From: Mustelus asterias
Taxonomy: Eukaryota
Direction: 5' to 3'
DNA length: 64,000 nt
Assembly: GCF_964213995.1 (NCBI RefSeq)
Contig: NC_135817.1
Coordinates: 72,912,001 to 72,976,000 of the forward strand
Of this stretch, positions 22,418-58,689 are shown piece after piece. Every line of letters begins with the position of its first letter. Position 1 is the stretch's first letter. Under the pieces are notes generated by a model. It saw only the letters and a list, made by a program, of their open reading frames with translations. It was not told the origin of the DNA and made no database searches. The position numbers were made by a program, and so were the translations under genes.

Positions 22418-22456
22418 CCACTAGCTTTCGGAGTGTGCTGCTCCTTCGTCAGGTGG
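22418..22456 (-). ncRNA. Minimal type-I hammerhead ribozyme motif
   Basis: Reverse complement: CCAC CTGACGA A GGAG-CAGCACA-CTCC GAAA G CTA GTGG. Confidence 0.75.
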
Positions 22457-27326: not shown

Positions 27327-28594
27327 AATTTCATCTGCCCCTCTCCCACCTCTGCCTCCTGTCGACTGGTAAAGTTCTGCCCAATCTTACTGGAGCTATC
27401 ATTCCCAATCTTACTGGAGCCATCAAAGAACAAAGGAAATTACAGCACAGGAACAGGCCCTTCGGCCCTCCAAGCCTGCACCGACCATGCTGCCCGACTG
27501 AACTAAAACCCCCTACCCTTCCGGGGACCGTATCCCTCTATTACCACCTATTCATGTATTTGTCAAGACGTCCCTTAAAAGTCACTATTGTATCTGCTTC
27601 TCGTACCTCCCCCAGCAGCAAGTTCCAGGCACCCACCCCACTCTGTGTAAAAAACTTACCTTGAACACCTCCTTTAAACCTTGCCCCTCACACCTTAAAC
27701 CTATGCCCCCTAGTAATTGACTCTTCCACCCTGGGAAAAAGCTTCTGACTATCCACTCTGTCCATGCCCCTCATAATCTTGTAGACTTCTATCAGGCCTC
27801 CCCTCAACCTCCGTTGCTCCAAAGAGAACAAATCAAGTTTCTCCAACCTTTCCTCATAGCTAATGCCCTCCATACCAGGCAACATCCTGGTAAATCTTTT
27901 CTGTACCCTCTCCAAAGCCTCCACATCCTTCTGGTAGTGTGGTGTCCAAAATTGAACACTATATTCCAAGTGTGGCCTAACTAAGGTTCTATAAAGTTGC
28001 AACATGACTTGCCAATTTTTAAACGCAATGCCCCAGCCAATGAAGGCAAGCATGCTGTATGCCTTCTTGACTACCTTCTCCACCTTGGGAGAAGGTAGTC
28101 ACTTTCAGTGACCTGTGTACCTGTACACCCAGATCCCTCCGCCTATTAATACTCTTAAGGATTCTGCCATTTTTCTGTATATCTCCTATCTGTATTAGAC
28201 CTTCCAAAATGCATTACCTCACATTTGTCCGGGTTAAACTCCATCTGCCATCTTTCCACCCAAGTCTACAACCAATCTATACCCTGCTGTATCCTCTGAT
28301 GGTCCTCATCGCTATCCGCAAATCAACCAACCTTTGTGCCGTCCGCAAACTTACTAATCAAACCAGTTACATTTTCCTCCAAATCATTTATATATATATA
28401 TTACAAACAGCAAAGGTCCCAGCACTGATCCTTGAGGAACGCCACTTGTCACAGCCCTCCATTCAGAAACACACCCTTCCTCTGTCTTCCATGACCAAGA
28501 TGTGGAGATGCCGGCGTTGGACTGGGGTAAACACAGTAAGAAGTTTAACAACACCAGGTTAAAGTCCAACAGGTTTATTGGGTAGCAAAAGCCA

Positions 28595-28631
28595 CACAAG
28601 CTTTCGGAGCTGCAAGCCCCTTCTTCAGGTG
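28595..28631 (-). ncRNA. Minimal hammerhead ribozyme motif
   Basis: Reverse complement: CAC CTGAAGA A GGGGC-TTGCA-GCTCC GAAA G CTT GTG. Confidence 0.75.
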
Positions 28632-28934
28632 AGTGGGAATTCTGTTCACAAACAGGGCATGTAAAGACACAAGCTCAATTTACATGAATAATAGTTGGAA
28701 TGCGAATACTTACAACTAATCAAGTCTTTAAGAAACAAAACAACGTGAGTGGAGAGAGCATCAAGACAGGCTAAAGAGATGTGTATTGTCTGGAGCCTGT
28801 CTTGATGCTCTCTCCACTCACGTTGTTTTGTTTCTTAAAGACTTGATTAGTTGTAAGTATTCGCATTCCAACCATTATTCATGTAAATTGAGTCTGTGTC
28901 TTTACATGCCCTGTTTGTGAACAGAATTCCCACT

Positions 28935-28971
28935 CACCTGAAGAAGGGGCTTGGAGCTCCGAAAGCTTGTG
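28935..28971 (+). ncRNA. Minimal hammerhead ribozyme motif
   Basis: CAC CTGAAGA A GGGGC-TTGGA-GCTCC GAAA G CTT GTG. Confidence 0.75.
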
Positions 28972-29156
28972 TGGCTTTTGCTACTAAATAAACCTGTTGG
29001 ACTTTAACCTGGTGTTGTTAAACTTCTTTCCATGACCAAGCCAGTTCTGTATCCACCTCGCCAGCTCACCTCTGATCCCATGCGGCTTCACCTTCTGTAC
29101 CAGTCTGCCATGAGGGACCTTGTCAAAGGCCTTACTGAAGTCCATGTAGACAACAT

Positions 29157-33348: not shown

Positions 33349-33454
33349 GGCCAGTCCCCAGGACGTGGAGATGCCGGCGTTGGACTGGGGTAAGCACAGT
33401 AAGAAGTCTCACAACACCAGGTTAAAGTCCAACAGGTTTATTTGGTAGCAAATA

Positions 33455-33491
33455 CCATAAGCTTTCGGAGCGATGCCCCTTCGTCAGATGG
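33455..33491 (-). ncRNA. Minimal hammerhead ribozyme motif
   Basis: Reverse complement: CCAT CTGACGA A GGGGC-ATC-GCTCC GAAA G CTT ATGG. Confidence 0.75.
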
Positions 33492-33676
33492 AGTGGTCTC
33501 TGTTCTCCAACAGTGCACAGACACAGAAATCAAGTTACAGAATACTAATTTAATGTTCCCTCCACCCACATTATCTGTACCTTTTAAGACCTGGCTGGCT
33601 GTAGAGATTTGCATTCTAATTAGTATTCTGTTACTTGATTTCTGTGTCTGTGCACTGTTGGAGAACAGAGACCACT

Positions 33677-33713
33677 CCATCTGACGAAGGGGCAGCGCTC
33701 CGAAAGCTTATGG
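33677..33713 (+). ncRNA. Minimal hammerhead ribozyme motif
   Basis: CCAT CTGACGA A GGGGC-AGC-GCTCC GAAA G CTT ATGG. Confidence 0.78.
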
Positions 33714-33907
33714 TATTTGCTACCAAATAAACCTGTTGGACTTTAACCTGGTGTTGTGAGACTTCTTACAGTCCCCAGGACACCAGGGATCAACATTACA
33801 AAAACAGATTAGCTGCACATTGCTGTTTGTGGGAGCTTGCATTGCAAACATTTTTAAAATTATAACTCTTCAAAAAAGTACTTAATTGGTGGTAAAGCAC
33901 TTTGCGA

Positions 33908-57039: not shown

Positions 57040-57685
57040 ACAAAAACAGATTCAGAAAAGCAGGGCTGACAGCATCTGAAGAGAGAGAAAGAGTTTACGG
57101 GTAGAAGTTTCTGAGTGGCACAGTGGAACCCCTCACCATGGGCACACCCCTGGGGGGGCAGTGCCAGGTGCCTGCCAGGGGGCAGCACCAGGTTACTGCC
57201 CGGGCATGACCCTCTGCCCTCTGAGACTGCACTCATCTGCCGGTCCTGCTTGCCAGGTGCATGTTGTGGAGGGGGGGGGCACCTGTTGTGGTTCACATCG
57301 GCGCGCCCTCACGCCAACATGAATCCAATGGCGGTGCAGGGCAGGGTCTATCAGGAATAAAGGCCAGTTAATGATATTTAACTCAATGCAAATGGGGATC
57401 CCAAATTTCAAAGTCGGAATTCCCATTACGTCACTGGCGGGGACAATTGATGAGGGAAATGCTGCCAGCGTAAAAGCCATTTTGGAATTCCCCAGGGGAT
57501 GTTTTGACCTTGTCACCATTCCCATGCCCTGAAAAAAGGAGCAGAAAGTCCTCTCCTGCGTTCCAGGTCGGAAGGTATTGACCTGAAACATCTGCTTCTC
57601 CCTCCACAGATGCTGCCAGACCTCCTGAGCACTTGCAGCATTTTCCGATTTCGTGTCAGGTTTCCAGCATCTGCAGCATTTTGCT
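57040..57685. mobile_element. Older palindromic PLE-derived element (second family), interrupted by a GC-rich MITE-like insert
   Basis: Left arm CAGCATCTG.AGAGAGAGAAA (57070-57092); right arm GAAGGTATTGACCTGAAACATC..CAGATGCTGCCAGACCT (57571-57685). Confidence 0.55.
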
Positions 57686-57706
57686 GTAGGGCAACAATAA
57701 CTGATC

Positions 57707-57928
57707 CCAAAAGAGAAAATGCTGGAAAATCTCAGCAGGTCTGGCAGCATCTGTGGGGAGAGAAAAGAGCTGACGTTCCGAGTCCAGATGACCAGCTTTG
57801 ACAAAGAGTCATCTGGACTCGAAACGTCAACTCTTTTCTCTCCTTGCAGATGCTGCCAGACCTGCTGAGGTTTTCCAGCATTTTTTCTTTTGGTTTCAGA
57901 TTCCAGCATCCGCAGTAATTTGCCCTTG
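57707..57928. mobile_element. Palindromic PLE-like element, second family
   Basis: Inverted arms of about 85 bp, one-sided tail of about 35 nt, TSD AACAATAACTG (57693-57703 and 57929-57939). Confidence 0.8.
57794..57832 (+). ncRNA. Minimal hammerhead ribozyme motif, U3-A8 core variant
   Basis: AGCT TTGACAA A GAGTC-ATCTG-GACTC GAAA C GTC AACT. Confidence 0.6.
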
Positions 57929-58689
57929 AACAATAACTGCTCGCCGAGTCATTACAAGACCGATATGCATTTGCCTACATAACGGCCACTGCAATTCTTC
58001 CCATATGAAATGAGTTGAGATGCTACTGAGAGGTATGAGAACATTTGTACATCTTGTTTTCTGTTCTGCAAGTTAAAATCTTGATCCAGCCTGTCAGGTT
58101 ACTTCAGGGTTATGAGTTTGCGATAGAAGCATGCTTTTTATATTCATTAATGGGGATGTGGGAGTCATTGACATTTATCATTTGAGCCTCGATATCTACT
58201 ACTTGTAAACTTCATATATTTTCCCCTCGTTGTTGAACCAATGGCCCTGATAGTAACTCTGAGGTGCATTCGGAGCAGGGGAGTAGGATGATGTAGGGTG
58301 TGAAGCCTGGAAGAAATCCCAATGTGTTGGTTTATGATATTTTAAAACCCTCAGCAGGTGTGGTGGATACACGGATCTTGTGTTCTTAACTGGAACATTG
58401 AAATGGCCAATCCAAAATGGTCATTGAAATGGCCAATCCAAGGATGGAGTTTAAGACAGTTAGGAGCTGAAGTAAAGTGAAGGAGATGGTTATGGGCCAC
58501 ACCGATATTTAATGATGTTTATCTTGATGCGCGGCTGGGTGGAGTAAGGCGTAGGACAGAGATACTCCCTCAGCGATAGGAACAATGAAGAGGGTGTGGC
58601 CTGCACTTAGCTGAGGAGATCAGCAGCAGCAGTATTGTGTCATGCTCCTGGACTCAGCACTTTAACGGTCTAAGCGGATCAGACAAGGC

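Follow-up and report, generated by a model that had tools for sequence, protein, structure and literature searches.

The palindromic insertion at positions 57707-57928 of the window, i.e. of the complete stretch of 64,000 nucleotides that was analysed, raises the question of why the hammerhead motif at its centre carries U3-A8 in place of C3-G8 and which kind of element has left it there. The first-pass annotation had regarded it as a member of a non-autonomous, ribozyme-bearing retroelement family with a compensatory core. It proves to be the dead remnant of a protein-coding retroelement that is very abundant. Probably it represents a short head-to-head insertion of the ribozyme end of a Penelope-like subfamily encoding RT and GIY-YIG domains, in which U3-A8 is the normal state of the core, and it likely arose when both cut target strands primed reverse transcription on uncut RNA.

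Anatomy of the palindromic insertion

Rereading of the sequence reproduced the annotated motif and architecture, with inverted arms, a one-sided tail, an 11-bp target-site duplication and a hammerhead core with U3 and A8. The two copies of the duplication occupy positions 57693-57703 and 57929-57939 (both given on the forward strand), and three additional bases (57704-57706) separate the left copy from the left arm. The inverted arms, 57701-57792 and 57808-57899, comprise 92 nt and are 90% complementary. With respect to the element, the segment 57707-57793 is a reverse-strand copy of the 3' end that terminates at the 'short' end site, with the final 9 nt of the core missing. On the forward strand, it is followed by the 5' strand of stem I (AGCU, 57794-57797), the minimal hammerhead (57798-57832), the direct arm as far as the short end site (57833-57893) and a one-sided tail of about 35 nt (57894-57928), which lies between two recurrent 3' end sites recognized by 3' end clustering. 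The AGCU coincides with a family-wide hot spot of 5' junctions and is likely the transcription start (+1), as judged from the starts of the arms and a TATAAA at -30. The window copy is 9 nt short at the centre of what is a perfect palindrome in the family, and the whole core is therefore present on the forward strand only.

The minimal hammerhead was delimited by sequence, a motif scan and family counts. It begins with the core UUGACAA at 57798-57804 (U3-U4-G5-A6-C7-A8-A9, with U3 at 57798 and A8 at 57803) and an extra A at 57805, followed by a 5-bp stem II (GAGUC, 57806-57810, and GACUC, 57816-57820) with the loop AUCUG, by GAAA (57821-57824) and by a C. The loopless palindromic ACGU and the cut triplet GUC (57826-57828) come next, and AACU (57829-57832) forms the 3' strand of stem I with the single mismatch to AGCU that had been annotated. 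The perfect stem II, likewise annotated, is confirmed for the window copy but does not describe the family, as its A is a minority state found in 3 of 70 sampled copies and the family base G forms a G-U wobble. By its sequence features the motif is a minimal hammerhead of Penelope-like elements, for which self-cutting is predicted. Folding of the whole window copy yielded one long hairpin (-159.6 kcal/mol) with a stem II probability of zero. In a monomer fold prediction of the right arm alone, stem II reached a probability of 0.82, but UUGAC was paired with GUCAA over the core. The ribozyme of the window copy is predicted to be inert, buried in the long hairpin.

Within the window, blastn detected similarity of the palindrome only to its neighbour, at 57059-57099 and 57596-57703, and none to the other fold-backs, in agreement with the annotation of an unrelated sequence. 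The neighbour (57040-57685, listed with no strand) is a separate insertion with arms at about 57040-57100 and 57560-57685 and other DNA between them. It is an older, decayed relative as annotated, with a core that is too decayed to be read and with best relatives of the C3-G8 type. Besides the U3-A8 motif, the motif scan of the window returned six minimal hammerheads of canonical type, which belong to an unrelated fold-back family. This Penelope family (28521-29045 and 33396-33772, with motifs at 22452, 24778 and 43303) is characterized by canonical CUGANGA cores, an AGCU stem III palindrome and longer arms. An Rfam scan of the window gave no hammerhead among 10 matches at E <= 5, the canonical minimal motifs being likewise unmatched; the matches were hairpin-like miRNA models only, below their gathering scores.

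The 9-nt-short centre recurs at unrelated sites (L005 and L004 at G000:C1:5097767 and 5110570, as well as C1:5204646 and C1:65624761), suggesting that one microhomology join is preferred. A left flank is common to L004 and L005, in inverted orientation and 12 kb apart. The last three bases of the duplicated target, CTG (57701-57703), match the CAG present after each of the element's two 3' end sites, and a short pairing of target and template during priming is possible. Two strong tracts resembling 3' splice sites (pyrimidines followed by CAG) are located past the cut site at 57833-57850 and 57880-57899, the latter adjoining the short end site, and an intron within the leader of the element is possible.

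U3-A8 is the normal core of an abundant subfamily

The state of the core in the 3.68-Gb genome was determined by exact matching of a 32-letter pattern with positions 3, 7 and 8 left free. The pattern yielded 2736 exact matches and its reversed control none, so that the motif does not occur by chance. A tandem array (G000:C1:198.54-198.69 Mb onward; repeat unit about 2786 bp) contains a decayed copy of the palindrome in every unit and inflates pattern counts. A base other than U at position 3 was present in 127 matches (50 CA, 30 CG, 17 GA, 2 AA and 1 GG among the first 100 listed, typed by eye), and U3 was combined with a base other than A8 in 71 matches (46 G, 13 C and 12 T). By subtraction, 2538 of the 2736 matches (92.8%) carry U3-A8.

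A core-blind sample was drawn from the first part of one contig by means of an exact-match anchor downstream of the ribozyme, a procedure that is biased to young copies. It comprised 97 arms, 70 of them in register and 27 dropped as truncated or shifted. The 70 copies contain 62 UA, 3 CA, 3 UU, 1 UG, 1 UC and no CG core. C7 is intact in 67 of these copies, and 31 retain all features of the minimal hammerhead (a 3-8 Watson-Crick pair, the base after A9, G10.1-C11.1, GAAA, a palindromic 15.2-16.2 and NUH). U3-A8 is thus the consensus of the family and, as had been annotated, a compensatory change rather than a product of CpG decay; a CUGACGA consensus with independent single changes, named in the first-pass annotation as grounds for refutation, was not observed. 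A 39-nt anchor has 7752 exact matches in the genome, and descriptors fixed on CUGANGA miss one of its large hammerhead sets. The expectation that canonical searches would overlook such copies was well founded, since a CUGANGA-only descriptor is blind to U3-A8, and it has a precedent in PMC4209133.

A sister subfamily with the C3-G8 core

The C3-G8 copies that were caught by the pattern of the U3-A8 subfamily (subfamily A) belong mostly to a sister subfamily (subfamily B) with different diagnostic bases. Subfamily B gave 1362 pattern matches, and among the first 100 listed, typed by eye, 68 were CG, 22 CA, 5 UG, 1 UA and 4 other; T7 occurs in 17 of 46 subfamily B copies. The view that UUGACAA derives from a CUGACGA consensus by CpG decay can point to the CpG formed by C7-G8 and to the fast decay of CpGs in the family (in run X19, 20-38% by depth at two such sites). 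Subfamily B, however, displays the actual products of this decay, with 22% CA, frequent T7 and 1% UA, whereas subfamily A has 93% UA and a conserved C7. The U3-A8 of subfamily A is therefore not decay, and this view is refuted, with practically no probability left to it.

Six of the 40 motif positions distinguish subfamily A from subfamily B, namely positions 3 and 8, two loop II bases, the cut-site base (GUC/GUU) and one stem I base (U-A/U-G). All six differences fit the fold and all invariant core bases are unchanged, which suggests selection, though in a single event. G12 is intact in 61 of 70 copies of subfamily A versus 26 of 46 of subfamily B, and the core in its entirety in 31 of 70 versus 1 of 46; because both are better kept in A, it is regarded as the younger subfamily. 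The 29 best relatives of the decayed neighbour include 12 cores readable by eye, comprising 10 C3-G8, 1 C3-A8, 1 A3-G8 and no U3-A8. Since the older relatives are mostly C3-G8, this pair is likely ancestral, with one swap in the master of subfamily A. The swap would probably have begun with a CpG-type change of G8 to A, followed by C3 to U, and would have been kept since the 3-8 pair was restored. The ribozyme of this master was probably still under selection and would cleave weakly as a dimer. Against a functional swap, it has to be considered that the compensatory change counts as one event in one master and not as thousands, and that one of the two steps is CpG-hypermutable. The probability of finding two given positions among 6 differences in 40 is about 0.02, a post hoc figure. 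In locus L081, a subfamily A copy directly precedes a promoter and ribozyme stretch of subfamily B and is inserted in or next to the pLTR of the sister.

The parent element encodes RT and GIY-YIG domains

Many U3-A8 copies are not palindromic; upstream, they continue through a common stretch rich in pyrimidines and reach the end of a GIY-YIG frame. Among 30 loci that were picked by the GIY-YIG coding end, one being the query locus, 27 contain the ribozyme about 400 nt past the stop and the remaining three are interrupted ahead of it. All 27 ribozymes have the A-type core, 24 of them with the exact UUGACAA and three with one more change at or next to U4. A GIY-YIG/RT element ending in this sequence, for which the first-pass annotation had advised a search, was thereby found, and the annotated non-autonomous family was not supported: the ribozyme and tail, identical to those of the palindrome, make up the 3' terminus (pLTR) of an element with RT and GIY-YIG.

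Five longer loci have up to 2.8 kb in common at about 88% identity and contain a frameshifted RT (DKG, YIDD), a CX4CxxC linker and GIY-YIG. Pfam matches, at E 0.0045 to RVT_1 and at E 0.0096 to GIY-YIG, were obtained for two of the five fragments and did not reach the curated cut-offs. The five loci are frameshifted, lack an intact ORF and an upstream direct pLTR, and include no complete pLTR-ORF-pLTR copy. By its motifs (RT, DKG, CX2-5CxxC, GIY-YIG) and insertion anatomy, the parent falls under the definitions given in the available text of PMC8557442 for Penelope-like elements with a C-terminal EN (EN+), and among these it is of the Neptune/Nematis type.

Locus L128 (G000:C16:40587000-40596000) contains a head-to-head insertion of about 3.5 kb, both arms of which reach into the RT region. 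Given this long pair of the same kind, the window copy can be placed at the lower extreme of a continuum of lengths rather than in a separate non-autonomous family. Beyond the long tail, toward the ORF start, no sequence common to 43 tails was found. The family and its 5' hot spot were also present in the runs X19, X20, X23, X1, X8 and X12, which are labelled as several organisms and in which the core state at positions 3 and 8 lies outside the readout; accordingly, the family predates at least some speciation events.

End map of the insertions

The 3' ends fall at two sites about 35 nt apart. A recount by eye, with nine double-counted inserts merged, yielded 45 distinct inverted inserts, including 39 with one long and one short end, two short/short, no long/long and four with unclear ends; the long/short combination thus accounts for 39 of the 41 classifiable inserts. 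At the 5' side, 31 of 97 subfamily A arms start at the A of AGCU in stem I (+1) and 47 at +1 to +3 (two mis-scored), while 20 arms extend at least 14 nt upstream, into the 3' UTR of the parent. The 5' peak of subfamily B is broader, with 36 of 91 arms within 3 nt of +1. Read-through copies contain TATAAA at -30 in 8 of 8 cases in subfamily A and 7 of 9 in subfamily B, despite differing spacers. The hot spot was likewise observed in copies without an inverted arm and in other sequencing runs (four of four contig runs in one set, three of four in another). An additional, cap-derived G at -1 was not enriched (C 9, A 7, T 5, G 5).

Starts at the cut site are alike in the two subfamilies (2 of 97 arms in A, 1 of 91 in B) and hence uninformative on activity. 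Palindromes with a centre of 61-90 nt gave 2181 strand matches, many of them perfect +1/+1 joins, and none of 71 strand matches was a symmetric palindrome centred on the cut-site AGCT. A cut-site arm joined to a +1 arm was seen at 5 loci among the first 100 listed of 1583 matches, a total that is inflated by the tandem array and was not used for copy numbers. These joins were rejected as a footprint of in vivo cleavage, as AGCT microhomology also explains the five loci.

Proposed origin of the stub

The 5' junctions differ from copy to copy, so that each short palindrome was apparently made anew at insertion and not from a palindromic master. The pile-up of 5' ends 30 nt behind TATAAA and the few cut-site starts point to run-off copies of uncut RNA from the transcription start and suggest an RNA start at stem I and uncut integrated templates. 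From this end map we infer the following steps. A TATA promoter in the pLTR would start the RNA at the A of AGCU, and the element protein would cut both target strands about 11 nt apart. Priming would take place internally at two positions, some 100 and 135 nt away from the RNA 5' end, and both cDNAs would run off this end and then be joined, mostly via the self-complementary AGCT or nearby microhomologies. The product would be a palindrome that carries its tail on one side and is accompanied by a target-site duplication, the window copy being an imperfect join with a left side 9 nt short. In its most specific form, the proposal states that the hammerhead, given an RNA start at AGCU, represents the first 39 nt of a TATA-driven transcript, that the palindromes, in their thousands, are a fossil map across the genome of paired strong-stop cDNAs from uncut RNA and that the younger, more abundant subfamily fixed U3-A8. 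This form is put forward tentatively, as one that could about equally well fail as hold. If true, the subfamilies would constitute a natural matched pair (U3-A8/GUC versus C3-G8/GUU), and the ribozyme would be under selection though integrated templates are uncut.

The view of the first-pass annotation, a non-autonomous family, here taken as an independent palindromic retroelement of MITE- or retrozyme-like type that is copied as a unit with Penelope enzymes, would explain the many copies whose ends are almost identical and whose centre is perfect, and the uniform outer boundaries of the 29 closest copies. The centres vary among copies, however, many arms start at +1 beside unrelated DNA, and others continue into the 3' UTR of the parent, whose 3' end the sequence is. 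Uniform ends also follow from two fixed priming sites, the ribozyme is predicted to be buried in a palindromic RNA, and tandem monomers as in retrozymes were not seen. This view is largely refuted and regarded as highly improbable. Somewhat unlikely is an assignment of the 5' hot spot to a 3' splice site, or to stalling and fold-back of RT at the self-complementary AGCT, instead of a transcription start. A pyrimidine tract precedes the AG at +1, both being kept in the two subfamilies, and this AG can also be read as a 3' splice site; the intron of the D. virilis Penelope element ends at helix I (PMC4209133), the promoter of that element is TATA-less and internal (PMC2377424), and PMC3846280, in its available text, explains such junction palindromes by self-priming on an antisense template. 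A splice site predicts a start at the C after AG and a constant upstream exon, but the A is included and the upstream letters are variable. The other AGCT, located at the cut site and self-complementary to the same degree, gave none of 71 symmetric junctions. Moreover, the hot spot does not depend on an inverted arm, and the TATAAA spacing is kept across diverged spacers.

U3-A8 could also have been a neutral double hit in a master that no longer needed its ribozyme, with a motif that does not cleave. Ribozyme mutants leave the insertion by PAc in vitro unimpaired (PMC11167929), the hammerhead-less Naiads proliferate (PMC8557442), and cut-site starts are few in subfamily A. They are no more frequent, however, in the sister with the canonical core, the six differences between the subfamilies respect the fold with its invariant bases, and U3-A8 variants are said to be active in vitro (PMC3088659). 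A neutral origin is therefore considered distinctly unlikely. As to the wider meaning of the preferred reading, an insertion of the ribozyme end primed on uncut RNA, the role of the hammerhead for Penelope elements is called open in the available text of PMC8557442 and PMC11167929. The sister pair of natural cores and the sharp junction map provide ready constructs for work on the mechanism, and the prediction is precise: the RNA would begin at stem I and integrated templates would be uncut.

Comparison with known systems

The U3-A8 core, a rare swap, and the insertion anatomy are already published, and the new aspect is the vertebrate example; the novelty implied by the first-pass annotation was overstated. 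U3-A8 was described as a natural hammerhead covariation, with earlier in vitro activity cited, by Perreault et al. 2011 (PMC3088659), and Cervera and De la Pena 2014 (PMC4209133) reported U3-A8 cores in Cercyon Penelope elements of Schistosoma mansoni, with about 1,300 hits that were missed by the canonical descriptor and found only once it was changed. A literature search for shark Penelope hammerheads or a TATA/start-site account, with Repbase/Dfam, supplements and most subscription papers outside its scope, retrieved nothing relevant.

The present copies resemble Cercyon in having U3-A8 in a minimal hammerhead of the pLTR, an additional base between 9 and 10.1, G10.1-C11.1 and a palindromic 15.2-16.2, and in consisting mostly of dispersed truncated copies that the canonical descriptor overlooks (PMC4209133). 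In contrast to the heterogeneous schistosome hits, they make up a single dominant and homogeneous subfamily that has a direct sister with C3-G8; further differences are the Neptune/Nematis-type parent and the vertebrate host, probably a shark. The covariation is the same as in the natural hammerheads of PMC3088659, which the available text of that paper does not describe as Penelope-borne, and the present motif is without a stable stem III.

Head-to-head arms, a junction palindrome, a tail at one end (30-40 bp in published cases) and a target-site duplication of about 10 bp are common to the insertions of EN+ Penelope-like elements (PMC3846280, PMC8557442), and the CX2-5CxxC linker and C-terminal GIY-YIG to Neptune/Nematis (PMC8557442). 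In contrast to the published EN+ insertions, as far as these sources describe them, the shortest form dominates here and the junctions concentrate on one base 30 nt behind TATAAA. PAc, a Poseidon element of Anolis, cuts and extends both strands in vitro, uses two internal start sites and prefers uncut RNA (PMC11167929). It thus parallels the two internal RT start sites that would define the tail, the extension of both strands and the uncut template proposed here. PAc belongs to the Poseidon clade, has the canonical C3-G8 and begins its ORF in stem II, and no such ORF start was located in the present element. Animal non-LTR retrozymes are likewise non-coding, hammerhead-bearing and Penelope-related (bioRxiv 10.64898/2026.07.22.740005), but they are tandem direct monomers, whereas the window copy is an inverted stub of a coding element.
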